Positions 11,731 through 34,039 of a DNA stretch of 34,039 bases are shown here, piece by piece. The notes below the pieces were generated by a model. It did not search any database. It saw only the letters and a program-made list of their open reading frames with translations, and was not told the DNA's origin. Numbering within the stretch: position 1 is the stretch's first letter; every line of letters begins with the position of its first letter. This stretch comes from a virus (taxonomy: Duplodnaviria > Heunggongvirae > Uroviricota > Caudoviricetes). Location of the stretch: the IMG/VR virus record IMGVR_UViG_2617270939_000002; one strand, given 5' to 3'. The position numbers and the translations under genes are program-made.

Positions 11731-11737
11731 AGTGACC

Positions 11738-13864: not shown

Positions 13865-13899
13865 AATATTGATGTACTGAAGTTCAGTAAAGTCTACTA

Positions 13900-15542: not shown

Positions 15543-17099
15543 ATGGCTAGCGAAAATGACAAAAATCATAGAGTTAGGGTCGCGCAGTACTTGAGGATGT
15601 CTACCGACCATCAGCAATATTCTTTACATAATCAGTCCGAATATATCAAAGATTATGCTGAAAAGAACAATATGGAAATCGCTTATACCTACGATGATGC
15701 AGGTAAGAGCGGAGTCAGTATCGTAGGCAGGCATTCTTTGCAGCAGTTACTTAGCGATGTAGAACAAAAGAAAATAGATATACAGGCTGTATTATTTTAT
15801 GATGTGAGCCGTTTTGGTCGTTTTCAAAATAGTGATGAAGCGGCATATTATTCCTTTCTATTTGAGAGAAATGGTGTAGATCTTATATATTGTTCCGAAC
15901 CTATACCCACTAAAGATTTCCCTTTAGAGTCCTCTGTTATACTGAATATAAAAAGATCTAGTGCTGCATATCACAGCAGGAATTTATCTGAAAAGGTATT
16001 TATAGGGCAAGTAAATTTAATAAAGCTTGGTTATCATCAAGGCGGTATGGCTGGTTATGGGCTGAGACGTCTTTTAGTAGACGAAAATGGCATAGCTAAA
16101 GAAATATTGAGTTTCCGCAAAAGAAAGAGTATTCAAACAGATAGGGTAATATTAATTCCGGGACCAAAAAATGAAATAAAAATTGTAAATAGAATATATG
16201 ATCTCTTTATAGATAATAACGTCCCAGAATTCATTATTGCTGAGAGATTAAATGAACAGAACATACCTGCAGAAAATGGAACATTATGGACTCGTGCAAA
16301 AATACATCAAATTTTGACAAATGAAAAATATATTGGAAACAACATATATAACAAAACCTCATCTAAATTAAAAAGTAGGCTTGTAAAAAACCCCAAACAT
16401 GAATGGGTTAGATGTGACAAGGCATATAAACCTATTATTTCAAAGAAAAAATACAATAAAGCTCAAGAAATAATTCAGCTCCGATCCATTCATTTGACTA
16501 ATGAAGATCTATTAGAAAAACTAAAACAAAAATTAGAATCTAATGGAAAACTATCAGGCTTTATCATTGATGAAGATGATACAGGCCCTTCATCTTCTGT
16601 TTATAGAACCCGATTTGGTGGTCTTTTAAGAGCATATACTTTGATTGGTTATAAGCCAGAACATGATTACAGCTATCTCAAAATAAATGAAGCACTAAGA
16701 TCATTTCACTCAGAGATAATTGAGGATTTTAAGGGTGAAATTTTAAAAAGTAACTGTCATATAGACGAGTATAAATATGCCCCAATGCTTTACATCAATG
16801 ATGAGTTTTTAATTTCCGTCCTTGTTACTAAATGCATACATATGAAATCAGGTAAACTTAGATGGAAAGTCCGGTTTGATAACTCACAGAAAGCAGACAT
16901 AACAATTGTTATACGAATGAATTCACAAAATATTTCACCTCTTGATTTTTATATCATACCAAAGATTGAAAACGAATATAATAAAATGTGCATGACGGAA
17001 ACAAACAACATTCGATTAGATCTCTATAGATTTGATAATCTTGATAAACTTCTACAAATTATTACTCGCATGAAAGTGAGGGAACTATATGCTGCCTGA
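15543..17099 (+). CDS. Large serine recombinase (resolvase/invertase catalytic domain plus recombinase and zinc-ribbon domains)
   Basis: VAQYLRMSTDHQ catalytic serine motif near N-terminus; 518 aa; AT-rich. Confidence 0.85.
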   Translation: MASENDKNHRVRVAQYLRMSTDHQQYSLHNQSEYIKDYAEKNNMEIAYTYDDAGKSGVSIVGRHSLQQLLSDVEQKKIDIQAVLFYDVSRFGRFQNSDEAAYYSFLFERNGVDLIYCSEPIPTKDFPLESSVILNIKRSSAAYHSRNLSEKVFIGQVNLIKLGYHQGGMAGYGLRRLLVDENGIAKEILSFRKRKSIQTDRVILIPGPKNEIKIVNRIYDLFIDNNVPEFIIAERLNEQNIPAENGTLWTRAKIHQILTNEKYIGNNIYNKTSSKLKSRLVKNPKHEWVRCDKAYKPIISKKKYNKAQEIIQLRSIHLTNEDLLEKLKQKLESNGKLSGFIIDEDDTGPSSSVYRTRFGGLLRAYTLIGYKPEHDYSYLKINEALRSFHSEIIEDFKGEILKSNCHIDEYKYAPMLYINDEFLISVLVTKCIHMKSGKLRWKVRFDNSQKADITIVIRMNSQNISPLDFYIIPKIENEYNKMCMTETNNIRLDLYRFDNLDKLLQIITRMKVRELYAA

Positions 17100-17985
17100 A
17101 AAAAATGAATTCCCAATAATTCAAATTGAGATTGCAAAAATAAAATTTCTTAACCCACGAACAAGAAATAAGTTAGTGCATGAAGAAATAAAGGAAAGCA
17201 TAAAAAAAAGAGGATTAAGCAAGCCTATAAGCGTAAGAGCTATTGATGAAGGCGATTTCAAATATGCTTTAATTTGTGGTCAAGGGAGAATAGAGGCTCT
17301 CGTTGCATTAGGTGAAACTATTATTCCAGCAATTATAAGAGATGTATCAGAAGAAGATGCTTACGTTATGAGTTTAGTTGAAAACATTGCAAGGAGAAGA
17401 CCACGTTCTAATGAGTTATTACAGGTGATTAAAGACATGAAAATCAGAGGACTTTCAGACTCCGAAATAAGTGAGATTACTGGATATTCATCGAACTGGG
17501 TGAGCAGTATTAATATGCTACTTGATAAGGGAGAGCATAAACTTCTCTCAGCAGTCGAACGGGGTAATTTGCCTCTGTATCTCGCAGTGCAATTTGCAAG
17601 ATGTGAAACTGAGGAAGCACAAGATATTCTTACCGAAGCATATGATAAAAAATTAATAAAAAGTCGGGACATTATAAAGATAAAACACATTCTAAATCAA
17701 AGAACAGTTGGGAATAAAGGTGCAAAAGCAGCCGGATTTTATTATCACAAACCATCAAAAAGGATGACTGCAGAGGAGTTGATTGAGCTTTATGAAAATA
17801 GTATCGCTGAACATAAATCTGTTTATAACAACTCAAAATTCATAAAAACCAACCTACTAATAGTAAATGAGATTTTTAACATCATAATGATGAATAAAAG
17901 CTTTCAACATATACTTGAACAAGAGAATCTTTCAGAACTACCATCTCAGATATTAACCCCAATAAACAAAGAGGTATTAAAATGA
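17089..17985 (+). CDS. ParB-like N-terminal domain protein with HTH (paralog 1)
   Basis: ISVRAIDEGDFKYALICGQGRIEALVALGETIIPAIIRDVSEEDAYVMSLVENIARR matches ParB/Spo0J N-domain pattern; 11-nt overlap with recombinase. Confidence 0.7.
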   Translation: MLPEKNEFPIIQIEIAKIKFLNPRTRNKLVHEEIKESIKKRGLSKPISVRAIDEGDFKYALICGQGRIEALVALGETIIPAIIRDVSEEDAYVMSLVENIARRRPRSNELLQVIKDMKIRGLSDSEISEITGYSSNWVSSINMLLDKGEHKLLSAVERGNLPLYLAVQFARCETEEAQDILTEAYDKKLIKSRDIIKIKHILNQRTVGNKGAKAAGFYYHKPSKRMTAEELIELYENSIAEHKSVYNNSKFIKTNLLIVNEIFNIIMMNKSFQHILEQENLSELPSQILTPINKEVLK

Positions 17986-18878
17986 TTCAGATACGTTTTG
18001 GCGATAATTTTATTTACCTGGAAACTAATAAGTTAATTCCATCTAAGGAATTATTAGAAAACGTAAAGCGAAGCCATAAATATCATCAAATAGTTACCTC
18101 TATCGAAAGCTTAGGTATTATTGAACCAATAATAGTATTCTATGACAAAGATAAAGATGTCACTAAGATACTTGATGGCCATTTAAGGGTTGAGGCTTTA
18201 AAAGACTTAGGTATAGAAAAAGCTCCATGTATACTTTCGAGCATAGATGATGCTTTCACTCCTAACAAACAAGTGAATCATATAAATGTAGTTGAAGAAC
18301 ATAGAATGATAATTAAGTCTCTGGCAAAAGTATCAATTGAAAAACTTAGTGCTGCTTTGGGCATATCTGTTGATGCCATAAAAGATAAAGCGAATGTGAT
18401 GAACGGCATAGATCCAAGTGTAATTGCGAAACTTTCTGATAAACCTATACCTAAGGCTACATTTGACGTTTTGAGGAAAATGAAGCCAATTCGCCAAATT
18501 GAAGCAGTCGGTACAATGATTAATTTTGATAATTATAGTAAAAAATTTGCAATGAGCATCTTGGATGCAACACCGGCATCGATGATAGTAAATAAAGGGA
18601 AAAACACTCCCTATAAAAAGGATATAAAAAAAACCATACTTCGTCTGGAACAAGAAATGGCAACAACTTCGGAAGAAACGAAAAAGCTTCAAACCGAGTA
18701 TGGTTCAGATATGTTGAAATTCGTTATAATCCAGTCATATATTAATAAATTACTTGGCAATTCTAAAGTTCTTCATTGGTTCTTAGAAAACGAGGTTGAT
18801 TATCTTAATGAGTTAAAAAGAATTTCTAGAATAAATTCTTTGGATGATAAGACTCTTACTGAAAACAGCAAGTCATAG
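17982..18878 (+). CDS. ParB-like N-terminal domain protein with HTH (paralog 2)
   Basis: IIEPIIVFYDKDKDVTKILDGHLRVEALKDLGIEKAPCIL...; ATGA overlap with paralog 1. Confidence 0.65.
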   Translation: MIQIRFGDNFIYLETNKLIPSKELLENVKRSHKYHQIVTSIESLGIIEPIIVFYDKDKDVTKILDGHLRVEALKDLGIEKAPCILSSIDDAFTPNKQVNHINVVEEHRMIIKSLAKVSIEKLSAALGISVDAIKDKANVMNGIDPSVIAKLSDKPIPKATFDVLRKMKPIRQIEAVGTMINFDNYSKKFAMSILDATPASMIVNKGKNTPYKKDIKKTILRLEQEMATTSEETKKLQTEYGSDMLKFVIIQSYINKLLGNSKVLHWFLENEVDYLNELKRISRINSLDDKTLTENSKS

Positions 18879-19532
18879 TCATGTTTTATATAGCCTAAAT
18901 AAACCAAGAAGTATACTTACACAACGACCTTCACGCCGAAGAAGCTGTCAGATACGCCAGCAACCAAAGCATTACGTTTAAGTGTCAGTCATTGATACGA
19001 AGGGATAACTGCGTATCAGCAGCCGGACATTGAGTCGAATAAAGGCTGGTAGAGAGGGACAGTTCTGTGTCACCGGGAGATTCGTCAGAAACATCAGCGG
19101 CAGAACAGATGAACCAGCAATTGGTAGTGCACAGAAAACTCTCCAGTATTTAATTATTCAACTTAACACTAAAAAAAATCACATATTTAATATCATAATT
19201 TTTCTTTGGTCTACGTATGCGAGAGTTATTGTGGCTTTAACCGGGTATTAGGAGTCGTTTCAGATAAAAGATGTTCTTCGATTCGACTGGACTTGGTAAT
19301 AGCAATAAGTAATCGTTAATATTGAAGGACGAAAGGCTACTTCAAAACAAAGTAACCTTTCCAATATTCCCATCTATGGGACAAGTGGTACATTAACTGC
19401 ACATAGTGCAGGATACATATGACATAAAACTTTTTATTTATGGCATACATTATAAATAACTTGTATTTTATGAATGTCAATAGGTTCTTGTTTAATACTT
19501 TTAAAATAATTAATTGATTGTTTTTATTATAG

Positions 19533-19552
19533 CTTCGCTTGTACAAGCGAAG
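19533..19552. repeat. Perfect 9-bp inverted repeat around a central TA dinucleotide (CTTCGCTTG-TA-CAAGCGAAG)
   Basis: Read directly; the 2-nt spacer argues for a DNA-level protein-binding or crossover site rather than an RNA hairpin. Confidence 0.6.
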
Positions 19553-19587
19553 ATCCTATTGTTCTTGAATGAATAATGCCAATTATA

Positions 19588-19631
19588 AGAGAAGCAAGGG
19601 CTAACTCTGCGAAGCCGCTGCGCTTGCTTCT
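19588..19631. other. GC-rich stem-loop (10-bp perfect stem gagaagcaag/cttgcttctc, 24-nt structured loop) inside an AT-rich ORF-free gap
   Basis: Read directly; followed on plus strand by a C/T-rich tract. Confidence 0.5.
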
Positions 19632-20612
19632 CCGGTTTCCCCTTGCTTTTCTTCCCTTCGGTTAGAAAAGAAAAACCTGGTCTTTCTCTTTCAATGTCTG
19701 CACATTTACTACAACAGATTAGACAATCGCAACTATTTATTTTATATGGAAAACTAGTGCTTAAATTGCAGCTCTCATTTTTATCAATCATTTTGCATAA
19801 GATAAATTTAAGTTTATATACCAAGGCATCCCGTTAGTTTTTACACGTAGGTAAACTAATAGTCAAAATCGAACTTTGAATTGTAGATTCTTTTAATTTA
19901 ACTCTATCCATCCGGTTAGAGGTAAAGGGAGGTTCATTTCAAGATATCATTGAACACAGTTCCAGATTAATATTATCAAAGAATTGAAAAAGATAATTAT
20001 TATTGCAATCCGTTAATGAGTCCACTTCAATTTTCCGTTCTTCTTACAGCGTTCTGAACAGTTAAACATATGATAGCTATTTAAAACCTTCGGTAATCTT
20101 ATCCAATACGGACTTGTCTGGTTTGATAATTACCAGAATCACACTATGCTCTTCAGTCTAATTTGTCAGTGATAAGGAGATCCGACCTATCGAACTTGCG
20201 TCATTTCCTAAATTTAGTGATTATAAATGTGGTTATCTATGGTCTTGTTGTGAAGATGTAGGCTGGAATTATCATGACGAACTGCAGCCTACATAAGCCG
20301 ACAGTACGGCTTTGATCGAATCATTAACTCTTTTATCATCTCAGGAACTGTGCAGACATTCCAGTTCAATTTTATAACGTTCAGTAAAAATTTAAAAAGG
20401 TGACAGCCCATGATCTCAATTGCAGACAATCAACCGTCTTTGATGATCATGGGTATATAAGTTTAACAAGATGTCTTCATCTCATGTGATTAAAATATAT
20501 AACAACACTAATTTAAAAATCGATTCTTAACTCTTCCAAAATATCACCCTTTATATTTCATTAAATTAATATCATAACTACACATACTAATTAGATAGTG
20601 TGTTAATTAAAT

Positions 20613-22739
20613 TCATCTAACTGACTCAATGATCTTTTGTTCTATAACTCGCCCACCTTGCTTTCCAGACAAAGGACCAATTAGTACTTTAAAGTCGGCA
20701 TAGTCATCTGCCTCAGGCCTATGCTCTATAATAACAATTGCATTGAATAATTTAGATTTTTGATATATAAAATTCAGCACCTTCGAAGCCGTCTCAGAAT
20801 CAAGTCCAGCGACAGGTTCATCAATAAACAATATTTTGTTTGTTTTTCTGGACTTAGATAGTATTTCACATAATTTTATTCTACGCATTTCACCACCTGA
20901 CAGGGACTGCGTTTTTCTATTAAGTTTCAAATGTGATATTCCAAGATAATGGATAGTTTCAAGAATAGTATTAATCTTAGTGTTATTAAAAAAAGAGCTT
21001 AACTCTTTCAACTCAGTATCATATACATCTATTATATTCATACCATTAATCTGAGACTTTACTTCATCTATATTGTGGTCAAACAGTTTACCCTCACATT
21101 TATGACATGATATGTAGATATCCTTTTCAAAACCCCTTTCATATTTTATCACGCCCTTACCTTCACAAACTTTACATCCACCAAGTTTGTTTGGAAGGAA
21201 ATACTCTATATCTAATTTTGTTATATCGGAGAAAAATTCTGCAATTAATTTATTCAAATCCGTGATAGTTGCGACAGTAGAACGTCCTGTATATGATGAC
21301 AATTTTTGGCTTATATAAATCGAATCGGTAAGACTACAAATAGCTTTAGCTAAAGATGATTTCCCCGATCCGGAGATTCCAGAAAAAACAGTAACACACT
21401 CTTTAGGGATACGTATATTTTGATTAATGATGTTATTTTTATTAAGCCCTTCAAAATAATAGTAATCAGATATATTATTTTTGGGATTGAGGTTCCTTTG
21501 CGGCTGAATTTTTTCTTTTTCACAAATTTCCCCACCAGAAGAACCAGCGTATTTACCAACATGGATTTGCTGATCAGCAAGATCTATGAAATACTGCGAG
21601 TGCTCTACTAAAATAACTGTGTTTTTTTCTGATAATTTTTTTAGCTTTTGAAAGATAACTTCAAAATCGACAGGGTTAATTTGGGATGATATTTCATCGA
21701 TAACAATCAGAATACCTGTTGTATTAGATGTTAAAAGCCTGCTGAAAATAAGTTTTTGTATTTCCCCCCCAGAAAGACTGGGAATTGAACGAGACAAATT
21801 TAAATATCCCAATCCCATATTATTTATTGAGGACAACACTCTAATTAATACTGAGTCACCTATAGTTTTTTTCAGGGTATTACATAATTCAGATATAGGA
21901 GATAGTAAAAATTCATCAAATGTAAATCCTAAAACATCAAGTTGGGCTGTTTCTTGGTTAATTCTGCTTCCATTACAAAATGAGCAATTTTCTTCCTTTT
22001 TATACTTTGAATTGTTTTGGCTCCGTCCTATATTCGAATTAGCAAAAGACATTACGCCTTTATAAAAAGCTCTTCTTTGCTTCGTTTTTCCTTTGTGTTT
22101 AAATCTAAAAGATAATTTCTCAGCGCTTTCTCCATATAGTATTAGGTTTTTCTTTTCAAGTGATAGTGAATCAAAAGTATCATCTACTTTTATATTATTT
22201 TTATCACAATAGACCATAAGTAATTGGTGATAATAATCAGATAACTCACCAGTCCGCCAACATAAAAATGGTTTTTGATCTAGTCTACATTTTTCATTAA
22301 TTAATTCAGATTCATCCACACTAACTATCTCGCCAAGGCCTAAGCAGTGTGGACATTCATTTCTATAATTGTTTATTTTTAATTTATCATAATTAGGTAC
22401 TGCTACGTTTCTTTTGATTTTTAAAGATGACAAAGCTTGAGCTATATTCAGATATGAATATATAGTTGAACGAGGGTTGTTATTTGTGTTTCTTTGTGGT
22501 ATCGCAACAGCGGGAATTAACCCACTGAAATTTGCAACTTTATAATCACTTTCATTCAAATAACCGTTTTCTACAGCATCAAACTCATCTTTGCATAATT
22601 GATAAATTGATGAAAATGCTAAAGAACTTTTTCCTGCGCCCGAACGGCCATAAATAGCGGTTATTGTATTAAATGGTATAGTAACATCTAAATTTTTTAA
22701 ATTATGGGTGGCTATTCCCTCAAAAATGATCTTATTCAT
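20613..22739 (-). CDS. UvrA-like double-ABC ATPase with zinc-finger insertions (708 aa)
   Basis: Two Walker A motifs (GRSGAGKSS, GISGSGKSS), two ABC signatures (LSGGEIQKL, LSGGEMRRI), several CxxC pairs; AGAGGA RBS; ATG overlaps upstream stop as ATGAATAA. Confidence 0.85.
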   Translation of the reverse strand: MNKIIFEGIATHNLKNLDVTIPFNTITAIYGRSGAGKSSLAFSSIYQLCKDEFDAVENGYLNESDYKVANFSGLIPAVAIPQRNTNNNPRSTIYSYLNIAQALSSLKIKRNVAVPNYDKLKINNYRNECPHCLGLGEIVSVDESELINEKCRLDQKPFLCWRTGELSDYYHQLLMVYCDKNNIKVDDTFDSLSLEKKNLILYGESAEKLSFRFKHKGKTKQRRAFYKGVMSFANSNIGRSQNNSKYKKEENCSFCNGSRINQETAQLDVLGFTFDEFLLSPISELCNTLKKTIGDSVLIRVLSSINNMGLGYLNLSRSIPSLSGGEIQKLIFSRLLTSNTTGILIVIDEISSQINPVDFEVIFQKLKKLSEKNTVILVEHSQYFIDLADQQIHVGKYAGSSGGEICEKEKIQPQRNLNPKNNISDYYYFEGLNKNNIINQNIRIPKECVTVFSGISGSGKSSLAKAICSLTDSIYISQKLSSYTGRSTVATITDLNKLIAEFFSDITKLDIEYFLPNKLGGCKVCEGKGVIKYERGFEKDIYISCHKCEGKLFDHNIDEVKSQINGMNIIDVYDTELKELSSFFNNTKINTILETIHYLGISHLKLNRKTQSLSGGEMRRIKLCEILSKSRKTNKILFIDEPVAGLDSETASKVLNFIYQKSKLFNAIVIIEHRPEADDYADFKVLIGPLSGKQGGRVIEQKIIESVR

Positions 22740-23814
22740 ACTTTCCTCTACACCAATCACATTCAGGATCACGTGGAACATCTTGGACGTTAAAAGATAA
22801 ACTTCTAAGACTAAATTCGACTCTTTTATTTTCTTGTTGCAAGTGATCTACTTTCCCGGCAAGTAATTTTATAGCGTCCAAGCTTGCAAGGCTTGCAGCC
22901 AGACCTGATAGTGGTGAAAATGAACCTAATTTTCGTTTTACCCGGTGCAATTTCTTCACATTAACAAGGTCTTTGCTATTTATTTTTCCTAAAAATAGGT
23001 TAAAACAATTAAAGCATGCTGACTTAAATGGAATAATTGTCTGACCGATAAGGGTTTGATGAAGATTATATCCCCCGCCAACTATATGTGGGATATTATG
23101 AATCATACTAAAGAGGGCGATTATTTTACTGGTGTAATCCACATTAGGTTCATCAGCGCAGTTTATTATCAAATCTATATCAGAGGGTAGAATATTTCTT
23201 TTAAAAAAATCATCATCGATAATGTCATTGATAATGTCAATCTTAATATCTGGAGATATCTTTTTCAAAGAGTTGAGTAACGCTATATTTTTATCAGAGT
23301 TAATTTCATCCTCGAAATAAAACTGACGATGTAAATTACTTATATCTACATTATCGTGATCTACAAATATTATCGAACCAACATTGCAATGAGCAAGATA
23401 CGTTGCCACATTACTACCGACTGCTCCAATACCTACAATCATTACTTTTGATTTTTTAAGATTAATTATACATTCTAAAACCTCACTGGTGGTATGACAG
23501 TAGTCTTCAAATGTATTGATCATTCTATATTGTTCAGTGACAAGCTCTGCAGGGTATTGGCAATCTTGATCGATAATTATATTGTTTTCATTCAAAAACA
23601 AAGCTAATTTTTCAAGTTGTTGAATATCGATTCCTGAATAATTTGCTACAATTTCTTGAAGAGAAGTTTGCCCATCAAACATCTTTAAGAGTTCAACTAT
23701 ATTTGGAAAGTTGATTTTTATTTTTATACTTTCTCTAATATTGGATTTAAAAAACTCTACAGTATCATCATTTACGACGATACCAATACTTTGTCGCAGT
23801 CTAAAATTATTCAT
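22732..23814 (-). CDS. E1-like adenylyltransferase (ThiF/MoeB/MccB family) with PqqD-like N-terminal peptide-binding domain, paralog B (alternative GTG start at 23832)
   Basis: KVMIVGIGAVGSNVATYLAHCNVGSIIFVDHDNVDISNLHRQ nucleotide-binding motif; N-terminal LLKMFDGQTSLQEIV; C-terminal CFNC...CDWC. Confidence 0.8.
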   Translation of the reverse strand: MNNFRLRQSIGIVVNDDTVEFFKSNIRESIKIKINFPNIVELLKMFDGQTSLQEIVANYSGIDIQQLEKLALFLNENNIIIDQDCQYPAELVTEQYRMINTFEDYCHTTSEVLECIINLKKSKVMIVGIGAVGSNVATYLAHCNVGSIIFVDHDNVDISNLHRQFYFEDEINSDKNIALLNSLKKISPDIKIDIINDIIDDDFFKRNILPSDIDLIINCADEPNVDYTSKIIALFSMIHNIPHIVGGGYNLHQTLIGQTIIPFKSACFNCFNLFLGKINSKDLVNVKKLHRVKRKLGSFSPLSGLAASLASLDAIKLLAGKVDHLQQENKRVEFSLRSLSFNVQDVPRDPECDWCRGKYE

Positions 23815-24931
23815 TACAGATTTTGCATCCACTTTGTTTTACCAATTCAAAATTAGTCATTTTGCCTTCGTTTGGAAGGTATTCATACCGACTATTTACA
23901 TATGAAAATGCTGAATCATCCAACAGGAAGTGAATTAATTTCATGCAACTTAGATTAGCTGAAAAACCATTCATCATTGCTAATCCACCAGGCCCTCCTG
24001 GAATATAATTATCATAGACAGATTTTGAAAGGTCCAGTTGAGGATTATTGACTATACTATATACAGGCTTCCATCCTTTTAATGCCTTTGAAAACGTATT
24101 TTGGGCACAATCTATACAGGGTGTATGTGGAGGGAATATTAATTCTCCTGAACTCATTAAGTGGGCGTCAAATCCACCTGATACATACAGCGGAATAGCT
24201 CTTGCTTGTGCATATCTACCAAGTTTTAAAGAAGTATGACCTATATAAGGCTCATCACAAGTATTAATAATCAGATCTGTATCATCAGAAATGATAGAGG
24301 ATAGATTAGTAGTAGGTATAAGTTTTTCAAAATGTTTTGTTATTATTACTCGACTATCGATCCAACTCAAAAATTCTGACAGGACATCTACCTTTGGTTT
24401 TCCGATTTTCTTATAGTTATAATAACAATGCCTTGCTGCATTTGACTTTGAAAGGGACTTATAATCAACCAAAACTATATTTTTAACACCTGCGCGGACA
24501 AGTATTTCTATAATTTTGGCTCCTACAGCTCCACACCCAAATAAAACAACCTTTTTGCTCTCCAAGATATGTTGAGTTTCTACACCAGGTCGTTCAAGGA
24601 CAAAATCGTCCCAAAATGTAATTTGTCGTGAAAAACGAGGTTCAATATCGCAAATGTTATTTACATCATAAATAAAATGTTGATTTAGTAAAAAAGCAAT
24701 TAGTTTATCGACATCTTTTGAGCGTAGGGACCCCATCTCAGTAACTATATCATTTATAGTTTTTATACCATCAAGGCTGGCAATAAATCGAGCGACATTT
24801 TTATTAGTTTTTATTTCTAATCTATCACGCGTTGTCATCACATGAAATGTGAGTTTGACATTATCAGTATTATCTTCATTCGATATAAAAATATCCACAG
24901 TTTCTTTTATTTTATATTTTTTGGAGTCCAT
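23807..24931 (-). CDS. E1-like adenylyltransferase (ThiF/MoeB/MccB family) with PqqD-like N-terminal peptide-binding domain, paralog A
   Basis: KKVVLFGCGAVGAKIIEILVRAGVKNIVLVDYK motif; N-terminal FIASLDGIKTINDIVTEMG; C-terminal CIDC...CKIC. Confidence 0.8.
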   Translation of the reverse strand: MDSKKYKIKETVDIFISNEDNTDNVKLTFHVMTTRDRLEIKTNKNVARFIASLDGIKTINDIVTEMGSLRSKDVDKLIAFLLNQHFIYDVNNICDIEPRFSRQITFWDDFVLERPGVETQHILESKKVVLFGCGAVGAKIIEILVRAGVKNIVLVDYKSLSKSNAARHCYYNYKKIGKPKVDVLSEFLSWIDSRVIITKHFEKLIPTTNLSSIISDDTDLIINTCDEPYIGHTSLKLGRYAQARAIPLYVSGGFDAHLMSSGELIFPPHTPCIDCAQNTFSKALKGWKPVYSIVNNPQLDLSKSVYDNYIPGGPGGLAMMNGFSANLSCMKLIHFLLDDSAFSYVNSRYEYLPNEGKMTNFELVKQSGCKICNE

Positions 24932-24945
24932 TGTATATTCCCAAT

Positions 24946-24970
24946 AAAATCGCCCATCAAGGGCGATTTT
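24946..24970 (-). terminator. Perfect 10-bp hairpin (aaaatcgccc-atcaa-gggcgatttt) between small ORF and first E1-like gene; candidate attenuator/partial terminator
   Basis: Read directly; placement between a small ORF and enzyme genes is the classic precursor/processing arrangement. Confidence 0.5.
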
Positions 24971-24979
24971 GAATTTAGA

Positions 24980-25180
24980 TTAATATTGGAGAACGCCGGC
25001 GTTAACCTCCAAGTATTTTTCCCAAGCATCTAAATTCGACGCTGAGTTTTGCTCGTCGTTACCAGCTCGCGTGCATACACGAGTACAACAGTCACTACGT
25101 TCTCCAGAGCAACCACCCGTATAGTTGGCGGTAGCATTGGTATTGCTGATGACTTCAAATGTTAAATCTAAACACTGCAT
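24980..25180 (-). CDS. Small Cys-rich protein (66 aa), candidate precursor/substrate peptide of the E1-like operon
   Basis: ATG at 25180 with AAGGA RBS; MQCLDLTFEVISNTNATANYTGGCSGERSDCCTRVCTRAGNDEQ...; GC content higher than the enzyme genes, so assignment is tentative. Confidence 0.4.
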   Translation of the reverse strand: MQCLDLTFEVISNTNATANYTGGCSGERSDCCTRVCTRAGNDEQNSASNLDAWEKYLEVNAGVLQY

Positions 25181-25610
25181 ATCAGGTCCTTTGCAAGTCA
25201 ATTGATTAGCAAGCTAAGCATTCTCTTTGATATAGCTTAATTTTAAGAAAAAACTTACCCTTCATGATGATTAAATCACAAAACTTCTGTTCATGGGAAT
25301 GGTAATTTTTTGTGCGGATTCAATGCCAAATCTCATCAACAGATCGTCCTAAATAGATGCTCGGAATAGTAAAACAGTTTGAGGGAACTCAGCACGCACT
25401 GAGCGAAGCAGATCGTAGCACTTCTTCTCCGTAGCGAACGATGCCCGATACATAAAACGCTTCATAAAACCCATGACAAGACCCACACCCGCAGATTGAT
25501 CACCATGCTGATGTAGCATCGTGGTGACCGTGGCAGAGACACTGCCAAAACGCTCAGCTATGCCCGTTCATCCACTGAGCGTTGGATAAACTGGTTTACA
25601 GTTTCGAGGA

Positions 25611-26156
25611 TTGAAGACCAGAAATCGTTGCCTAAGCGATATTCTTAAAGCGTCGGCGGAACGTTCAGACAAACCCACTGGAGCTGTGCTACAGCATCTT
25701 ATTGGAGCCAAACTCCAATTGCGCTTTCCCAATGTTAAAATCGGCAGTGACAGAGCCAATGCAGCTGACTTACACACTGACCGTGAGGGTGATTTTCAGG
25801 TGGGTACTACTGCATTCCACGTGACCACCGCACCTATGGAGAAATTGATTTCGCGCTGTGTCGAAAACAAACGTGCAGGCTACAGGCCGGTCATCCTAAC
25901 TCTTGAAAGCAAAGTCATTGCAGCACGCCAGATGGCTGATAACGTTGGTATGTCTGAACAGATAGCCGTCCAGGCAGCCGAAACTTTCATCGGTAACAAT
26001 ATTGAAGAGATTGCTATCTATGACGGCGATAAAATCCGTGAGGGTCTCGCAAGACTGATACGTACGTACAACGTCCGTATCAATACTATCGAGATAGATA
26101 AATCCCTTATGATTGATGAGCCTCGTTGGATCGTTAACTTACTGACCGACTCCTGA
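25611..26156 (+). CDS. Hypothetical protein, possibly 5'-truncated gene remnant (TTG start in ORF track), in a segment of E. coli-like GC content
   Basis: 181-aa ORF without a convincing start or RBS; composition differs from flanking AT-rich DNA. Confidence 0.4.
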   Translation: MKTRNRCLSDILKASAERSDKPTGAVLQHLIGAKLQLRFPNVKIGSDRANAADLHTDREGDFQVGTTAFHVTTAPMEKLISRCVENKRAGYRPVILTLESKVIAARQMADNVGMSEQIAVQAAETFIGNNIEEIAIYDGDKIREGLARLIRTYNVRINTIEIDKSLMIDEPRWIVNLLTDS

Positions 26157-28307: not shown

Positions 28308-28697
28308 ATGAATAATGACATAACAAGACTATCAAGGCGTGGAAAATTCCATACTGACAAACTTCCGCCTGATGAAAGACGAAGCCACTGCGTCAGTGTC
28401 AGATTAAATGAAGAAGAATTAACTATTCTCGACAGTAAAAGAGGCCAGTATAAAAAAGGGGAATGGTTGAGAATGGCTTCCCTGAACAAACTCCCACCGG
28501 TTCTGCCCGAAATAAATCGCGAAGCATGGATTAAACTCGGCAGCCTTTCCCAGGATTTAAATTACCTACTGAATCATCTTGACAAGAAAAGTCCTGACAG
28601 CGAACTAACCCGTACAGAACTCTTTGCCCTGCGCAGACAAATCAAAACGCTTCGGGATCACCTTATTCCCTCAACATTTCTGGAGCAAGACCGATGA
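28308..28697 (+). CDS. MobC-like relaxosome accessory protein (ribbon-helix-helix)
   Basis: RRSHCVSVRLNEEELTILDSKRGQYKKGEWLR pattern; ATGA coupling to relaxase. Confidence 0.65.
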   Translation: MNNDITRLSRRGKFHTDKLPPDERRSHCVSVRLNEEELTILDSKRGQYKKGEWLRMASLNKLPPVLPEINREAWIKLGSLSQDLNYLLNHLDKKSPDSELTRTELFALRRQIKTLRDHLIPSTFLEQDR

Positions 28698-29953
28698 AAG
28701 GCATGCAGAAAATAAAAAGGGGTAAACAGTTTGCAGGAGTGGTGCTTTACAGCCTCAAATCCGGTCCACACCACAACGTTATGCCTTATGTCATCGGTGG
28801 TAATATGATCGGAAGTTCGGTGGCTGAGCTTATCAGTGAGTTTGAAATTTCTAAACAATTGCGTCCCGATGTCGCCAAACCCGTCTGGCATAATTCACTT
28901 CGCCTGCCAAAGGGAGAAACACTGTCAGCCAGACAGTGGGCGGCATTCGCCGACGATTATATGACCCGGATGGGGTTCACTGAAACGCACCTTCGCTGTT
29001 ATATCCTTCACGATGATACCGACGGGCAGCATATCCATATCATTGCAAGTCGCATTAACATGGCCGGTGGAAAGCTGTACCTGGGGAAAAATGAAAATCT
29101 CATCAGCACCCGCATTATCAGCGAACTGGAGCGAATACACGGACTCACTGAAACAACACCTGCAACCAGCAGTCGCCCTCAGGCTAAAAGAAAACCCTCA
29201 CGCAATGAGCTGATGATGGCAGAACGAACAGCAGTTCCCTGCCCTAAGTCTCAGTTGCAGACCCTGATTGATAATGTCTTAACGCATCGTCCCGATTTAC
29301 TGACTTTTATCGACATGCTGGAACAGAAAGGTGTGACCTGTAAACCCAATATCGCGTCGACCGGAAAAATGAATGGATTTTCATTTCAGTACCAGGGTAT
29401 TGCCTTTAAAGCGTCTCAGCTTGGAAAAAAGTATGGCTGGTCTTCTCTGCAAACGCAGATTGATTTTACACCAGAGCACCTGGCCTTACTGAAAAAAGAG
29501 CAACAACAGACTGTACCAGTGCCAGTGCCAGTGCCAGTGCCAGTGCCAGTGCCAGTGCCAGTGCCAGTGCCAGTGCCAGTGCCAGTGCCAGTGCCATCAT
29601 GCGAGCCTGAAGAACAGGTTGCAAACCGGGAAACGATTCTGGAGAAAATCCTTCAGCTTGAAGAAAAAATTCGTCTGGAAAGACAACAGGAAACAGTGGG
29701 TGTCATTCAACTCAGGAGCAAACTGCACAATACAGCTCGTCAGATACCCCGCCAGCGTCGTCTGCATTCGTGGTTTGTATTGCTCGGCCATATTGTGGCA
29801 CTTCTCAGGCGCAGGGGCATGTCTCTGTTACATGCCACTGCACATCCTTTCCACCAAATCCTGCACCTGCATCTTCTGACACCCTGTCATTCCATGACAA
29901 CAAATCCCATTAAAGAACAATTAGTTAAAAATAACCCCCATCCTGCACCATAA
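28694..29953 (+). CDS. Mobilisation relaxase (MobA/VirD2-like) containing a (VP)14 linker
   Basis: HLRCYILHDDTDGQHIHIIASRINMAGGKLY histidine-triad region; follows MobC-like gene. Confidence 0.75.
   Translation: MKGMQKIKRGKQFAGVVLYSLKSGPHHNVMPYVIGGNMIGSSVAELISEFEISKQLRPDVAKPVWHNSLRLPKGETLSARQWAAFADDYMTRMGFTETHLRCYILHDDTDGQHIHIIASRINMAGGKLYLGKNENLISTRIISELERIHGLTETTPATSSRPQAKRKPSRNELMMAERTAVPCPKSQLQTLIDNVLTHRPDLLTFIDMLEQKGVTCKPNIASTGKMNGFSFQYQGIAFKASQLGKKYGWSSLQTQIDFTPEHLALLKKEQQQTVPVPVPVPVPVPVPVPVPVPVPVPVPVPSCEPEEQVANRETILEKILQLEEKIRLERQQETVGVIQLRSKLHNTARQIPRQRRLHSWFVLLGHIVALLRRRGMSLLHATAHPFHQILHLHLLTPCHSMTTNPIKEQLVKNNPHPAP
29514..29597 (+). repeat. Hexanucleotide microsatellite (GTACCA + 13 x GTGCCA) encoding (Val-Pro)14 inside relaxase
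   Basis: Read directly from sequence. Confidence 0.95.
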
Positions 29954-31333: not shown

Positions 31334-31759
31334 TCACAGCCTTTTCCTGACCACGGATCCTGGTGGTGTATAAGCCAGAGAACGTGCAATGCGTTTCTTT
31401 TCATACTGTGCCAGTAAATCAGCATAAATGTGCTCTGCTTCATCCAGATTGCCTGAAATATAATTCACGAGCGAATTCAGGCAATGCAGTAATGTGTCAC
31501 TGTTTGCGAGTTGCCTGAGCAGAGGGGCCTTCAGGGTAGAAACGACACCCATAAACATCTGCATGATATTATCAACGTGATAACACGAATTGCGATATTG
31601 CGCCCGTGAATAAAAATACTTCAGATGGTATCCAGCGAAAAGCACATAAAGTTTTCTGTAAAAAATATTGTTATTAACACTGTCGCGATGCTGTGTTATA
31701 TATTTATCAACAACAAATATAAACTTTTCTTCCTGAGAAGAAACACAAATATTACTCAT
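31334..31759 (-). CDS. Hypothetical protein (141 aa)
   Basis: ORF only. Confidence 0.45.
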   Translation of the reverse strand: MSNICVSSQEEKFIFVVDKYITQHRDSVNNNIFYRKLYVLFAGYHLKYFYSRAQYRNSCYHVDNIMQMFMGVVSTLKAPLLRQLANSDTLLHCLNSLVNYISGNLDEAEHIYADLLAQYEKKRIARSLAYTPPGSVVRKRL

Positions 31760-32214
31760 AACCCTCTCCTTTTTTGTTTTTATAATTAAGTACTATCAGC
31801 TTTAAAATTTAAATCAATACAAAATTGAAAATATTTTATTTTAAAATGACAACTATTTATTCTTTTAATACTGGAAACAGCTTACGCTGTTGCAATGTTG
31901 AGTCCGATCGATTGCATTACCACTTCCTTTTTTCAAAAGCCAGGTAGTTTCCAGATTTCAGATAAAACCCCTTCAGGAATTTTTTTGAGAGAGTGCTACG
32001 CACCGGCTCACGCCCCCGACGACAGATATATGTAGATTATTTTTACCCGTCAGATGAAAACCCAACGTTTAATCCCTCTTGCAGCGCCGCTGAGTGCCCA
32101 CAGCACTCACTCGCTGAAGCAGAAAGGATTTTTCCGAAGGGGTTCCGGCGTGAGCCGTATTAAGTTAACGGGTAAATCATGTAGTCGGGTCCACTCTTTC
32201 GCTAAACTCAGCAG

Positions 32215-32305
32215 TCTGAATCTCTGCGCGAAGCGTATTTGTGCTGAGAGCTAAACCCAACTGTCTGAACTCCTGCGCGAAGCGTATTTCTACTGACAGT
32301 TAAAC
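32215..32305. repeat. Two tandem 42-bp direct repeats (period 49 bp, about 80 percent identical)
   Basis: tctgaatctctgcgcgaagcgtatttgtgctgagagctaaac / tctgaactcctgcgcgaagcgtatttctactgacagttaaac. Confidence 0.7.
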
Positions 32306-32466
32306 ACTATAGCAATGTTCTGAAGCCCAGTGGCGCAACATACAGGTGCGCAGGCTTCACTTAAGGAATAATATTACGAAGGAAAATCAGCAATAGCAGT
32401 GTTTATCAAACTGGCTTTGTTGAATAAATCAGATTTCGGGTACCGAAGCAGTCCTCTGCGGAGAAA

Positions 32467-32748
32467 GTGGGTGATACATGGTTAATGCTGGAAGAGCTAC
32501 GTTTTGTCATGGAGCAGTTCGCTCAGGCAACTAACGTTGGGCCGTTGATGCAGCACCTTATCCGCTTCTGCGTTTATGCTGGCGGGCAGCGACCGTTTGA
32601 AATGATTGCCAGCCAATGGAGCGCGATTGACTGGCAGCAAAAGACGTTACTGGTCATAGCCGATGTATCGAAAAACAAACGGGAGCACCTGATCCCATTG
32701 ACTGAATCGGCATTAAGTGAATTAGCCTCAGTGAAAGAACTGATGTAG
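32467..32748 (+). pseudogene. Tyrosine integrase internal fragment (5'-truncated, 3' end interrupted by IS insertion)
   Basis: GGQRPFEMIASQWSAIDWQQKTLLVIADVSKNKREHLIPLTESALSEL resembles start of integrase catalytic domain; stop codon created at IS junction. Confidence 0.55.
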
Positions 32749-32804
32749 CCCCCTGAAACACCGGACAGTAGCTGTATCTCCAGATAAGAGATAGGCTTGA
32801 ATAT

Positions 32805-33200
32805 ATGTCTAACACTAACGCCAATTTTGAGATGACCGGGATCCTGTTAGGGCAAGAAGTCCGTAAACGTAAAACTCCTCAGGAGAAGATCGCCATTATC
32901 CAGCAGACGATGGAGCCGGGTATGAATGTCTCCCATGTCGCCCGCCTGCATGGTATCCAGCCCAGCCTGCTGTTTAAGTGGAAGAAGCAATATCAGGAAG
33001 GCAGCCTCACCGCCGTTGCGGCTGGAGAGGAAGTCGTTCCTGCTTCTGAGCTTACTGCTGCTCTGAAGCAGGTCCGGGAGCTTCAGCGCCTTCTGGGCAA
33101 GAAGACGATGGAAGTTGAGATCCTGAAAGAAGCCGTGGAGTACGGTCAGTCGCGAAAATGGATAGCGCACGCGCCCTTGTTGCCAAAGGACGGGGAATAG
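32805..33200 (+). CDS. IS3-family transposase OrfA (IS2 InsC-like, HTH)
   Basis: [53 protein letters not shown]...[17 protein letters not shown]. Confidence 0.85.
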
Positions 33201-34039
33201 CCATGGTCAGCCGGACCATGGGCGTGTCGCGTGCGCAACTGTCACTGCGGATTAACCGTTCTGCCGACTGGCAGGACAGGCGCTGTAACCGGCGTAATGA
33301 AGAAGCAGACGCAGAAATACTGTCGGCTATCCTCAACATTATCAGCGATATGCCGAGTTATGGTTATCGACGCGTGTGGGGCATCCTGCGCAAGCAACGT
33401 CGCACAGAGGGACAGCCACCTGTGAATGCCAAACGGCTTTACAGGATAATGAGCGAGCATAACCTGTTGTTGTTGCATCACAAACCAGAGCGACCGAAGC
33501 TTGAACATAAGGGCAAGATAGCGGTGGCAGAAAGCGATATGCGCTGGTGTTCAGATGGCTTCGAGTTCGGCTGCGACAACGGCGAAAAACTGCGGGTAAC
33601 GTTCGCGCTGGACTGCTGCGACCGTGAGGCCATAGACTGGGCAGCAAGCACGGGAGGCTATGACAGTTCGACCGTGCAGGATGTGATGCTGAGGTCGGTG
33701 GAAAAGCGCTTCGGCGACAGGTTGCCCGACACAGCGGTGCAGTGGCTGACGGATAACGGTTCAGCGTATACCGCGTATGAAACGCGGAGGTTCGCGAGAG
33801 AGCTGAATCTGGAGCCCTGCACAACAGCGGTGAGCAGCCCGCAGAGTAATGGCATGGCCGAACGGTTCGTGAAAACGATGAAAGAAGACTATATCGCGTT
33901 CATGCCAAAACCGGATGTGAGAACAGCACTGCGAAACCTTGCAGTAGCGTTCACGCATTACAATGAAAACCACCCGCACAGCGCGCTGGGATATCACTCC
34001 CCGAGGGAATACCGGCGGCAGCGGACATCGTTAACTTAA
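33158..34039 (+). CDS. IS3-family transposase OrfB (IS2 InsD-like, DDE catalytic domain)
   Basis: RWCSDGFEF...[18 protein letters not shown]...WLTDNGS...[15 protein letters not shown]...[14 protein letters not shown]. Confidence 0.85.

Follow-up and report, generated by a model that had tools for sequence, protein, structure and literature searches.

Tandem 49-bp repeats in a conserved non-coding region of integrative mobilizable islands, left at an IS-scarred junction between two islands

The right end of a 34,039-nucleotide stretch of DNA, filed as a virus record (IMG/VR IMGVR_UViG_2617270939_000002) and called the window throughout this text, raises a simple question. Two related repeats lie there a short distance upstream of a broken integrase gene, and an insertion sequence (IS) runs from the broken gene to the edge of the window. 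Do the repeats belong with the integrase, as a sequence-only reading of the window had proposed, or are they part of something else, and what might they do?

The right end of the window is, with good confidence, an IS-scarred junction between two genomic islands. Island 1 is mobilizable; it was probably severed within its plasmid-like replication and transfer control region and fused to the broken integrase of a second island. The junction itself is a case of routine IS-driven decay, ordinary mobile-DNA wreckage. The repeats, however, sit in about 1 kb of conserved and previously undescribed DNA that appears to be a non-coding control region of integrative mobilizable islands. The features discussed below are collected in Table 1.

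Table 1. Features of island 1, the junction and the IS, in window coordinates
Feature	Position	Strand	Remarks
Island 1 integrase, intact, P4-type	13950-15260		
Island 1 NikA-like protein and MOBP-type relaxase	28308-29953		
141-aa conserved hypothetical gene	31334-31759	-	ORF; left boundary of the non-coding region
Block (i), GTGCTACGCACCGGCTCACGCC	31993-32014	+	small GTGC/GCAC hairpin, then nic-like octamer (32003-32010)
Block (ii)	32077-32157	+	hairpin 32090-32119; CCGAAGG mini-hairpin; GGCGTGAGCCG at 32147-32157
Two tandem 49-bp units and partial third start	32201-32305	+	units 32201-32249 and 32250-32298
Invariant cores TGCGCGAAGCGTATTT	32225-32240 and 32274-32289	+	each with CGC-GAA-GCG mini-hairpin
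Hairpin (iii), CTGAAGCC...GGCTTCA, enclosing GCGCAAC/GGTGCGC	32320-32359	+	
IS903/IS903B-type terminal 30 bp (IS5 family), GGCTTTGTTGAATAAATCAGATTTCGGGTA	32413-32442	+	solo remnant marking the break
P4-type tyrosine integrase fragment	32441-32743	+	codons ~219-319 of 438; start of catalytic domain
Left copy of 15-bp target-site duplication, CCTCAGTGAAAGAAC	32726-32740	+	
IS2-group IS3-family IS, first 1299 of 1336 bp	32741-34039	+	IRL TGATGTAGCCCCC
orfA	32805 (or 32832)-33200		HTH_Tnp_1
orfB	33158-34039		rve

The junction between the two islands

From 31780 to 32413 the window is 100% identical to an island in E. coli E24377A, and the homology stops at 32413. The next stretch, overlooked in the sequence-only reading, is the end of an IS903-type element: all 30 bases equal the ends of annotated IS903 and IS903B copies, beginning with the terminal inverted repeat GGCTTTGTTGAATAAATC... 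More than 5000 plasmid records match 32405-32442, and in two records the match is the end adjoining the IS903/IS903B transposase gene. Unlike an intact IS903 or IS903B, the remnant has neither a transposase gene nor a second end, and the sequence switches to integrase at 32441-32443. At its edges, G32413 is common to the remnant and the island, and TA at 32441-32442 is common to the remnant and the integrase. The IS903 end separates the repeats from the integrase fragment, and the two belong to different elements.

The fragment beyond the scar is related to tyrosine recombinases, as had been suggested: it matches nt 656-958 of intact tyrosine-recombinase genes of 1317 nt at 97% identity and scores 27.9 bits against Pfam Phage_integrase (PF00589; cutoff 27.1). 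The intact homologue carries Arm-DNA-bind_3, Phage_int_M and Phage_integrase domains. In comparison with the P4-type integrases of E. coli islands (aer-nfeR-nfeF, AlpA + YfjI, CP4-57-like), the fragment is missing the arm-binding and core-binding domains, and of the catalytic set it keeps only the first conserved arginine (GGQRPFE). The integrase is thus incomplete in the window, and the part with the R..H..Y residues lies beyond the IS in a related contig, L009. The earlier description of the fragment as doubly truncated applies inside the window only. In L009 the IS is followed by the 3' part of the gene, so that the gene is truncated at its 5' end but just interrupted at its 3' end. Since the gene is split by the IS, it is a pseudogene. 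Its reading frame does end in a stop supplied by the left end of the IS: homology to the intact genes ends at 32743, and the TAG at 32746-32748 is inside the IS end.

Intact copies of this integrase head an island that adjoins aer-nfeR-nfeF and carries Fic, AlpA and YfjI genes, and in L009 the 3' part of the integrase is followed, after the IS, by a Fic gene. The suggestion that the right end holds the remains of a further integrative element disrupted by an IS is therefore borne out.

The IS begins at 32741 (TGATGTAG...) rather than at the TAG, and its last 37 bp, including the right inverted repeat (...GGGTCAAGATCA), lie beyond the window. Its assignment to the IS3 family stands: the two overlapping reading frames carry HTH_Tnp_1 and rve domains, the ends are TG...CA, the NCBIfam IS3 model scores 197 bits (cutoff 160), and the best NCBIfam matches are the TnpA and TnpB of IS2. 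E. coli carries near-identical copies (99.8-99.9%) in many different contexts; their annotation is that of an IS3 family transposase made by programmed frameshift. The element thus resembles IS2 in its overlapping orfA/orfB with the annotated frameshift, in its domains and ends and in its length of about 1.3 kb, but it falls below the NCBIfam IS2 cutoffs (TnpA 201 against 229 bits; TnpB 413 against 597) and is without an ISfinder name in RefSeq.

Extending the sequence past 34039, as the sequence-only reading had advised, is possible in L009, which contains the right end of the 1336-bp IS with the 15-bp duplication on both of its sides; intact integrase genes have one copy of these 15 bp. A target duplication of 15 bp is unusual for an IS3-family element. 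That of IS2 is 5 bp, and the family makes duplications of 3-5 bp. Here the duplication is 15 bp at five independent sites and 15 or 16 bp at a sixth, with none at one plasmid copy.

The structural steps of the junction are documented by these comparisons. First, an IS903-type element inserted about 38 bp upstream of CR, a short conserved block of the intact island described below. A later illegitimate join at the TA microhomology left just 30 bp of that element, removing on one side CR, the rep gene and the distal part of island 1, and on the other side the first 655 nt of the second island's integrase gene. Before or after the join, the integrase was split by the 1336-bp IS2-group element with its 15-bp target duplication, and the 3' part of the integrase and the body of the second island continue past the window. 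A deletion, an inversion or a tandem arrangement may have brought the two islands together. The identical junction was found in at least 24 independent contigs, and a scan of species-representative genomes gave no match to the exact junction. A tRNA search of the window found none, and the sole Rfam match in the whole window at the gathering threshold was a cspA thermoregulator in the prophage part.

The repeats and the conserved region around them

The sequence-only reading had noticed two related 42-bp units. The best-conserved stretches of about 42 nt do start at 32215 and 32264, and the period is 49 bp. Tandem Repeats Finder reports 32201-32305 with period 49, 2.1 copies, 84% matches and a score of 145, and the two full copies align without gaps at 82% identity. 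Each contains a 16-nt core, TGCGCGAAGCGTATTT, with a GCGAAGC mini-hairpin. The exact 16-mer occurs in the window at 32225 and 32274 only; with up to three mismatches there are 3 matches against 0.30 expected, a number that no shuffled sequence reached. Folding of each 49-bp unit into a large conserved hairpin was considered and dropped, as such a hairpin is present in the window's lineage only and just the mini-hairpin is kept elsewhere.

Related loci place the repeats firmly in island 1. Two or three copies at exactly 49 bp are present in 14 species genomes and in 42 of 42 metagenome contigs, with three copies in E. coli H1; in three related loci, which form one subclade, the spacing is 39-40 bp, and one clade (AH65) is without repeats. 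These loci bear directly on the proposal that the repeats are arm-type or att-associated sites of the element whose integrase fragment lies 140 bp downstream. Proximity within the window, and nothing more, speaks for it. The repeats lie in the other island, in DNA 100% identical to E24377A and to the left of the IS903 scar; the sequences flanking this scar stem from two separate islands. At 58 other loci, the relaxase module and the 141-aa gene are on one side of the repeats and the Rep-like gene is on the other, and any att region is at least 18 kb away. Where the truncated integrase is intact, nfeF is upstream of it, and a search around these copies for the core 16-mer, of the kind that had been recommended, found none within 6 kb. 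Arm-type sites are thus very improbable.

In intact relatives the island has a backbone like that of a small plasmid, which consists of the relaxase module, a divergent 141-aa gene, about 650 bp of GC-rich, hairpin-rich non-coding DNA that holds the repeats, a short T-rich CR-like block, an AT-rich promoter region and a gene for a 187-aa winged-helix Rep homologue. The region of about 1 kb is found in islands of at least 12 enterobacterial genera, with a conserved order: relaxase, nic-like block, 232 nt, two or three cores at 49 bp, about 180-230 nt, CR, about 300 nt, rep. This count covers 16 species genomes from at least 12 genera and 42 metagenome contigs. The 141-aa gene, the divergent neighbour of the control region, keeps its place in 20 of 21 genome loci and in the majority of metagenome contigs; it has no match in Pfam, NCBIfam, PHROGs or PADLOC. 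A 66-aa ORF at 32054-32254 was rejected as a small gene because relatives differ there by single-base indels. The central non-coding region has no BLAST match among plasmids, and no free plasmid with the region was found. A search for perfect DnaA boxes, the IHF consensus and GATC clusters found no perfect DnaA box and no IHF consensus.

Three further blocks are conserved alongside the repeats. Block (i) hardly varies among 21 genome loci and 38 metagenome contigs, and in all of them the first core follows about 232 nt downstream; its octamer is CTGGCTTA in most relatives and CCGGCTCA in the window. Block (ii), the only part that still matches in the most distant islands (82-84%), contains the hairpin CTGAGTGC-N5-GCACTCA and, in GGCGTGAGCCG, a complement to block (i). 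RNAalifold keeps both this hairpin and the long-range helix, with one variable pair that appears as CG, UG or UA and is broken in some sequences. Hairpin (iii) has one compensatory change from C-G to T-A in a distant clade, while its other pairs are mostly invariant with few breaks.

Could the GC-rich block, repeats included, be a structured plus-strand non-coding RNA that regulates the Rep-like or the 141-aa gene? Such an RNA would account for the strong conservation and the hairpins, for the changes that are tolerated as G-U on the plus strand only, and for a fold z-score of -3.7 on that strand (-2.6 on the minus strand, both from DNA folding); each core also resembles a weak mini-terminator. 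But true compensatory changes affect just 2 of 35 pairs, there is no suitably placed promoter-like site and no proper terminator, and an E-value search of the intact intergenic region against Rfam returned no family even at E <=1. Furthermore, GAA triloop hairpins are known as DNA rather than RNA motifs. A regulatory RNA is therefore improbable.

One neighbour of the region is a gene that the window has lost. In intact islands the control region precedes a homologue of the Rep proteins of the pHW126 plasmid family. The 187-aa protein (Rep homologue WP_000072654.1) shares 47% identity over 171 aa (E 2e-59) with the Rep of a 2675-bp plasmid on which no other gene is annotated, and 40% (E 1e-32) with RepM of pIGMS31; it also gives weak matches to the phage O N-terminal domain and to HTH_36. 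Across plasmids of 2.6-2.8 kb the identity to Rep is 44-47%, and in both settings Rep is a MarR-like winged-helix protein of about 190 aa. The family layout in the literature is ssi (single-strand initiation), CR, four 20-bp iterons and rep; the direct repeats and CR make up the minimal origin and are bound by Rep, whereas ssi is non-essential, and Rep-dependent replication and Rep nicking have been assayed by two-plasmid origin tests and nicking assays (bioRxiv 10.1101/2022.12.05.519187).

The island resembles this layout in several respects. It has a T-rich conserved block about 300 bp upstream of rep, in which GGTTTCTTATTTCTT aligns in register with the plasmid CR at 15 of 16 positions, a short and AT-rich match that by itself falls short of significance (E ~0.5). 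Upstream of CR, on the rep-coding strand, there is hairpin-rich DNA with a GCGAAGC-type mini-hairpin, and the replication module is coupled to a mobilization module. There are also differences. Unlike pHW126, pIGRK and pIGMS31, the island module is chromosomal and belongs to an island that has an integrase and some 18 kb of cargo; its structured upstream region is much longer, at about 650 bp; and its relaxase is of MOBP type with a NikA-like partner, rather than MOBV or MobK. A search for 20-bp iterons between CR and rep found none in three island types, nor was there a match in the island to a plasmid-type iteron; instead, the island has its two or three 49-bp units upstream of CR. Two Salmonella "plasmids" with a close relaxase and Rep turned out to be linear assembly fragments. 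In the window, a search for the rep gene and CR found both absent, and the repeats are orphaned there because these two are gone.

Possible roles of the repeats

The function of the repeats we infer, from their context and conservation: they would act in cis within the region where replication and transfer of the island originate. The reading that we prefer, at somewhat less than even confidence, is that they are tandem ssi-type hairpin signals. On the displaced or transferred plus strand they would start complementary-strand synthesis, much as the ssi of pHW126-like plasmids does just upstream of CR. Ranked next, and somewhat more tentative, is the possibility that they are iteron-like sites for the Rep homologue or for a relaxosome accessory protein. 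How do these possibilities fare against the evidence?

In favour of the ssi reading, the repeats are upstream of CR on the rep-coding strand, which is the place of the plasmid ssi. The core also contains GCGAAGCG, the octamer of the pIGMS31 ssi core hairpin, and the pIGMS31 ssi is itself 88-90% identical to phiX174 nt 2320-2372. The island element shares several traits with phiX174-type ssi or primosome assembly sites (the phiX174 F-G spacer, pIGMS31): it precedes the origin core, it is on the displaced strand, and it has the octamer and a small hairpin whose GAA loop is closed by C-G. Clades with a Rep and a relaxase that have diverged by 15-25% still have an identical core, which fits a host-factor site, and wobble changes in the hairpins are, as noted above, restricted to the plus strand. 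However, unlike the phiX174-type sites, the island element is tandemly repeated and has other flanking sequence. The ssi sites known so far are not in tandem; each is one structured element of about 70 nt. Beyond the octamer, the repeat region shows no significant similarity to the ssi of pIGMS31 or of phiX174 (p values from local alignment were 0.1-0.9, with one of ~0.01 among 12 tests), and the larger hairpin of the unit gives way to the mini-hairpin in other lineages.

If the repeats were strict iterons, they would be double-stranded sites for a pHW126-type Rep, moved in this island to the other side of CR, and together with CR they would form the origin and set copy number and incompatibility. 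This is a possible reading, which we hold at well under even confidence. Because the island is without 20-bp iterons between CR and rep, the 49-bp units are the only direct repeats available as iterons in the origin region, and it is direct repeats with CR that Rep binds in the plasmids. Their number (two or three) varies as that of iterons does, and the invariance of the 16-nt core runs past the hairpin (TATTT), which fits a sequence-specific protein site and counts against the ssi reading. Against iterons, the recognition helix of Rep in the 2.7-kb plasmids is almost the same (SNVSRAFKELFEKK), and yet these plasmids use different iterons, AT-rich palindromic 17-mers (ATTATGAAAATCATAAT) without an island counterpart, and the core lacks the dyad symmetry seen in plasmid iterons. 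The spacings of 49 bp and, in one subclade, 39-40 bp are out of helical phase, and the AH65 clade is without repeats but has kept CR and a Rep with the same recognition helix; the latter parallels the non-essential ssi of the plasmids, and both observations favour the ssi reading. Finally, plasmid iterons are downstream of CR. The suggestion in the sequence-only reading that the repeats are iteron-like therefore survives in part: no other direct repeats occur in the non-coding DNA that precedes the pHW126-family Rep homologue, but they are on the ssi side of CR rather than the iteron side. Taken together, ssi signals are slightly more likely than Rep iterons.

The repeats might instead belong to an origin of transfer. 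The NikA-like ribbon-helix-helix protein, or a different accessory factor of the relaxosome, would bind them and so place the MOBP relaxase at the nic-like block, some 230 bp farther upstream. A candidate for the oriT nick region is block (i), which is conserved more strongly than any other non-coding block. In most related islands CTGGCTTA follows directly 3' of its small hairpin, as in the ColE1-type oriT nick region (CTGG/CTTA), and this octamer contains the ColE1 relaxase cleavage site (PMC5703827). The repeat region is always linked to the relaxase module. The usual place for oriT, upstream of the nikA-like gene, is not conserved and resembles a terminator and promoter: an ATCCTG motif and a hairpin are present there, but the motif is not conserved and the hairpin varies like a terminator, and this candidate was set aside. 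On the other hand, the window itself has CCGGCTCA, the chance of an 8-mer match in about 1 kb is ~3%, and the candidate site follows the relaxase gene at a distance of 2 kb. The relaxase of the island is a MOBP enzyme with three histidines, of a different clade from that of ColE1, which is of the HEN type, and a search of plasmids with the nearest relaxases (42-52% identity) found no convincing nic-like motif. Accessory sites 135-230 bp from nic would be unusual, and the AH65 clade has block (i) and no repeats. A role as relaxosome sites is thus rather unlikely.

The ssi reading can be extended to the whole region, at the price of more speculation. The 650-bp GC-rich block might be an undescribed composite origin of widespread enterobacterial integrative mobilizable islands, spanning the nic-like hairpin block, the conserved hairpin, two or three 49-bp units with GCGAAGC and the second hairpin, with the 49-bp units as a new, tandem kind of ssi. 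The islands would excise, replicate by means of the pHW126-type Rep and be mobilized by the MOBP relaxase, and the 49-bp units would work on whichever strand is transferred or displaced. We regard this proposal as doubtful.

Implications for the islands and the IS element

With its long target duplication the IS may depart from the short duplications that are the rule in the IS3 family, and this bears on how these transposases hold target DNA. The context of the repeats has a wider reach. It ties the poorly understood pHW126-like replicons, so far only cryptic plasmids of 2.5-3 kb, to a family of chromosomal islands with an integrase, a relaxase and defence-type cargo in Escherichia, Salmonella, Citrobacter, Enterobacter, Kluyvera, Lelliottia and other genera. 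If these islands replicate after excision, their stability, copy number and transfer would all be affected, and the region that bears the repeats would gain a testable role.

Junctions at the right end of the window

The right end carries two related ~42-bp units, an integrase fragment and an insertion sequence (IS), as a sequence-only reading had observed, and the observation is confirmed (see table). The units are the best-kept parts of a single array (Tandem Repeats Finder on the window: period 49, 2.1 copies, 84% matches, score 145), the in-register copies of which are 82% identical when measured on the identical sequence of E. coli E24377A. The exact 16-mer core occurs only twice in the whole window; at up to 3 mismatches the window holds 3 matches, compared to 0.30 expected by chance.

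Island 1, the integrative mobilizable island bearing these repeats, is matched here by the E24377A chromosome and ~150 other complete genomes, and in all of them the match breaks off at the same base. There begin the terminal 30 bp of IS903 or IS903B, which are all that is left of that element in the window. This end is matched by more than 5000 plasmid records, and in the two examined it adjoins an annotated IS903 or IS903B transposase gene. The switch from remnant to integrase occurs at a TA common to both sides, which points to an illegitimate join. In all, three junctions exist, and the earlier reading had missed the one at the IS903 remnant; the junction region as a whole is ordinary.

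The integrase fragment aligns at 97% identity with nt 656-958 of intact E. coli tyrosine-recombinase genes, 1317 nt long, and passes the Pfam Phage_integrase model (27.9 bits, threshold 27.1), so that its description as a catalytic-domain fragment holds. The exact 93-aa product of the truncated frame was found on at least 24 public contigs examined, and by the index it is present in 51 blocks of the collection. Its in-frame TAG belongs to the IS, given where the left end of that element lies, and so the stop was indeed made by the IS. Of the proposed double truncation, the 5' part stands and the 3' part does not: in L009, a contig with the same junction that extends past the window edge, the IS right end is followed by 15 bp, the remaining 123 integrase codons with their R...H...Y residues, and a Fic gene, arranged as in the intact island of E. 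coli ET350. The 3' side is thus interrupted rather than truncated, and the idea of an integrative element disrupted by an IS is right for the integrase. The intact copy of this second island adjoins aer-nfeR-nfeF and carries Fic or hypothetical genes, AlpA and YfjI. A second contig with the junction, L008, differs from L009, likewise from a metagenome assembly, in the right flank of the IS (position 11611 onward), which it joins to a phage terminase and not to the integrase 3' part. Because strain AREA_C483 has an identical flank at a true IS insertion, bordered by a duplication of its own, the likeliest explanation of L008 is a second IS copy together with assembly ambiguity; the disagreement implies that such a copy lies in a prophage terminase, either in the same genome or in a related one.

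The IS3-family orfA (HTH_Tnp_1) and orfB (rve) do extend to the very end of the window. The left end of the element was placed by comparison with copies in ydeE and a phage terminase gene, and extension beyond the window, as had been advised, located both the right end and the target duplication; the whole IS is 1336 bp. Copies with 99.8-99.9% identity lie in many chromosomal and plasmid contexts, labelled 'IS3 family transposase, programmed frameshift' in RefSeq and without an ISfinder name there. The IS2-group label is fair, since IS2 TnpA and TnpB are the closest NCBIfam models, both matched under their cutoffs, and the generic IS3 model is passed. IS3-family elements normally duplicate 3-5 bp of target, and IS2 itself 5 bp. 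Here, however, the 15 bp after the right end in L009 equal those before the left end, and a tally across nine IS copies gave no duplication for one plasmid copy, 15 bp at each of five independent sites and, at one more site, 15 or 16 bp. No report of a 15-bp IS3-family duplication was found in the literature searched, and the observation is modestly novel. Three of the six distinct sites (window 32726-34039; L006, L007, L009, L039-L042) lie within integrase genes.

Features of the window and their coordinates
Feature	Position	Sequence or remark
Lambdoid prophage, late and lysis region	1-13900	terminase, portal, lysozyme, holin
cspA-type thermoregulator, in prophage part	7537-7953 (-)	Rfam RF01766, 141 bits
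P4-type integrase, intact	13950-15260	island 1
Cargo	15543-26156	island 1
NikA-like gene and MOBP-type relaxase	28308-29953	island 1
Relaxase	28694-29953	
(Pro-Val)15 tract	~29540-29630	within relaxase
E24377A match	31780-32413	100% identity
Block (i)	31993-32014	hairpin GTGC/GCAC
Block (ii)	32077-32157	
11-mer complementary to block (i)	32147-32157	GGCGTGAGCCG
Repeat array	32201-32305	
In-register copies	32201-32249, 32250-32298	
Best-kept ~42 nt of each unit	starts 32215, 32264	
Core 16-mer	32225, 32274	TGCGCGAAGCGTATTT
Hairpin (iii)	32320-32359	
IS903/IS903B end	32413-32442	GGCTTTGTTGAATAAATCAGATTTCGGGTA
Common TA	32441-32442	
Integrase fragment	32441-32743	likeness to intact gene stops at 32743
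Target duplication	32726-32740	CCTCAGTGAAAGAAC
IS left end	32741	TGATGTAGCCCCC
In-frame TAG	32746-32748	
IS right end	37 bp beyond window edge	...GGGTCAAGATCA

The conserved spacer of island 1

The repeats and the truncated integrase derive from different islands. Island 1 has its own intact integrase, to the left of which lies the lambdoid prophage, with no tRNA between the two. The proposal that the repeats are arm-type sites of the truncated integrase is unsupported, since the core 16-mer is absent within 6 kb around intact copies of that gene, and the repeats are unrelated to it.

In E24377A and relatives, the repeats lie within a ~1-kb unannotated spacer between a 141-aa gene (- strand) and a 187-aa 'helix-turn-helix' gene (+ strand). 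The entire spacer is alignable among island lineages at 71-77% identity. Its most conserved hairpin motif, used as a probe, uncovered 16 further loci (in Lelliottia, Superficieibacter, Citrobacter, Enterobacter, Phytobacter, Escherichia ruysiae, Atlantibacter, Kluyvera, Salmonella diarizonae, Leclercia and Pseudocitrobacter), and a scan with two repeat cores yielded 42 metagenome contigs. Related islands share a fixed order: the relaxase, ~3.3 kb upstream; the 141-aa gene; block (i), GTGCTACGCAC-YGGCTYACGCC; hairpin block (ii), ~95 nt after block (i); two or three cores, 135 nt after block (ii) and exactly 49 bp apart (39-40 bp in three loci); hairpin (iii); a T-rich block, GGTTTCTTATTTCTTTATCACTCTTTTATCTTGCA; an AT-rich stretch of ~300 bp that holds a promoter; and the 187-aa gene. 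The core is essentially invariant across these loci, unlike its diverging flanks. The repeats are missing from one clade (E. coli AH65, E. ruysiae and S. diarizonae), which keeps all the blocks.

The relaxase Pro-Val tract varies in length among otherwise identical contigs (relaxases of 419, 403 and 409 aa) and is a point at which several assemblies break. Encoded in the cargo are a serine recombinase, two ParB_N+RepB proteins, a UvrA-like ABC ATPase (PADLOC mad3, 150 bits) adjoining two ThiF/E1-like proteins, and a DUF4928 type II restriction enzyme of which a C-terminal remnant is left; an intact methylase and DUF4928 pair occurs in related contigs, and the cargo of the AH65 copy includes a retron Eco8 effector.

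A probable plasmid-like replication module

Family searches with the 187-aa protein gave only weak matches (Cro, HTH_36 and the phage O N-terminal domain). A translated plasmid search was more telling: in cryptic plasmids of 2.6-2.8 kb from Klebsiella, E. coli, Enterobacter, Citrobacter and Serratia, the sole or second gene matches 91% of the length of the protein at 44-47% identity, and RepM of pIGMS31 is 40% identical to it. According to three sources (bioRxiv 10.1101/2022.12.05.519187; PMC6854812; PMC2831885), pIGMS31, pIGRK and pHW126 define the pHW126-like family, whose REP module consists of an ssi-like palindrome (ssi, single-strand initiation site), a ~20-bp 'conserved region' (CR), iteron-like repeats (four, of 20 bp each), operator repeats and rep, the product of which is a winged-helix protein, MarR-like and able to nick; CR and iterons are essential, and the ssi has a stabilising effect without being required. 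The passages searched in these sources contain no mention of chromosomal homologues of these replicons.

The island T-rich block aligns with the plasmid CR (GGTTTCTTATTTCTT versus GGTTTCTTCTTTCTT) in register relative to rep, although the match is short. Unlike the plasmids, the island has no 20-bp iterons between CR and rep, nor any match to the plasmid iteron. Given the Rep homology and the short CR alignment, the module is treated as a variant pHW126-like replicon within an integrative mobilizable island. Two of the cryptic plasmids (L044, NZ_CP041107.1, 2675 bp; and L045), with the Rep homologue as only or second gene, have four palindromic 17-bp iterons (ATTATGAAAATCATAAT) after CR and no replicon type in PLSDB. 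The AH65-type clade (L017, L024, L030), a divergent one, has the nic-like block, both hairpins, CR and a Rep homologue (68% identity), without 49-bp repeats.

Island 1 homology stops ~38 bp short of CR, and both CR and the Rep homologue are absent from the entire window. The window thus retains only the upstream, hairpin-rich part of the module, and its repeats are orphans, cut off by an IS903-associated rearrangement.

Possible roles of the repeats

What might the repeats do? A tentative answer, to which we give somewhat less than an even chance, is that they are ssi-type signals. Like the plasmid ssi, they sit upstream of CR on the rep-coding strand. Each core holds CGC-GAA-GCG, and the octamer GCGAAGCG is common to the core and the heart of the pIGMS31 ssi, an element 88-90% identical with nt 2320-2372 of phiX174; these lie in the F-G intergenic spacer, which holds the phage's primosome assembly site. 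The core is unchanged across lineages differing 15-25% in Rep and relaxase, which suits a host-factor site and favours ssi. The loss of the repeats from one clade matches the non-essential plasmid ssi, and the spacings of 49 and 39-40 bp are out of helical phase. Strand asymmetry argues the same way: in the hairpins nearby, only the + strand accommodates base changes as G-T, and folding against shuffled sequence gives z = -3.7 for the + strand and -2.6 for the - strand. On the other side, similarity to known ssi sites is not significant outside the octamer, the larger hairpin of each unit is limited to the lineage of the window, the 16-nt invariance reaches outside the hairpin, and known ssi sites are not tandem repeats, whereas the island units are. 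That the island lacks any other candidate iterons speaks for iteron or protein-binding repeats, a reading we consider slightly less likely than the ssi one.

A candidate for oriT is block (i), the most conserved non-coding block; where oriT would usually be expected, upstream of the nikA-like gene, conservation is lacking. Block (i) consists of a small hairpin and, behind it, an octamer that in most relatives is CTGGCTTA, which contains the ColE1 nick site (PMC5703827); in the window the octamer is CCGGCTCA. Block (i) is also complementary to the 11-mer 140 nt downstream, the one variable pair occurring as C-G, U-G or U-A, and several sequences break the helix. Block (i) is a possible oriT of the island, a lead and not a finding. 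A role for the repeats as relaxosome accessory sites is improbable, and other roles take up the remainder. Whether as ssi-type signals or otherwise, the repeats would be a conserved cis element of the plasmid-like replication and transfer backbone of island 1, and the conserved region that bears them is modestly novel.
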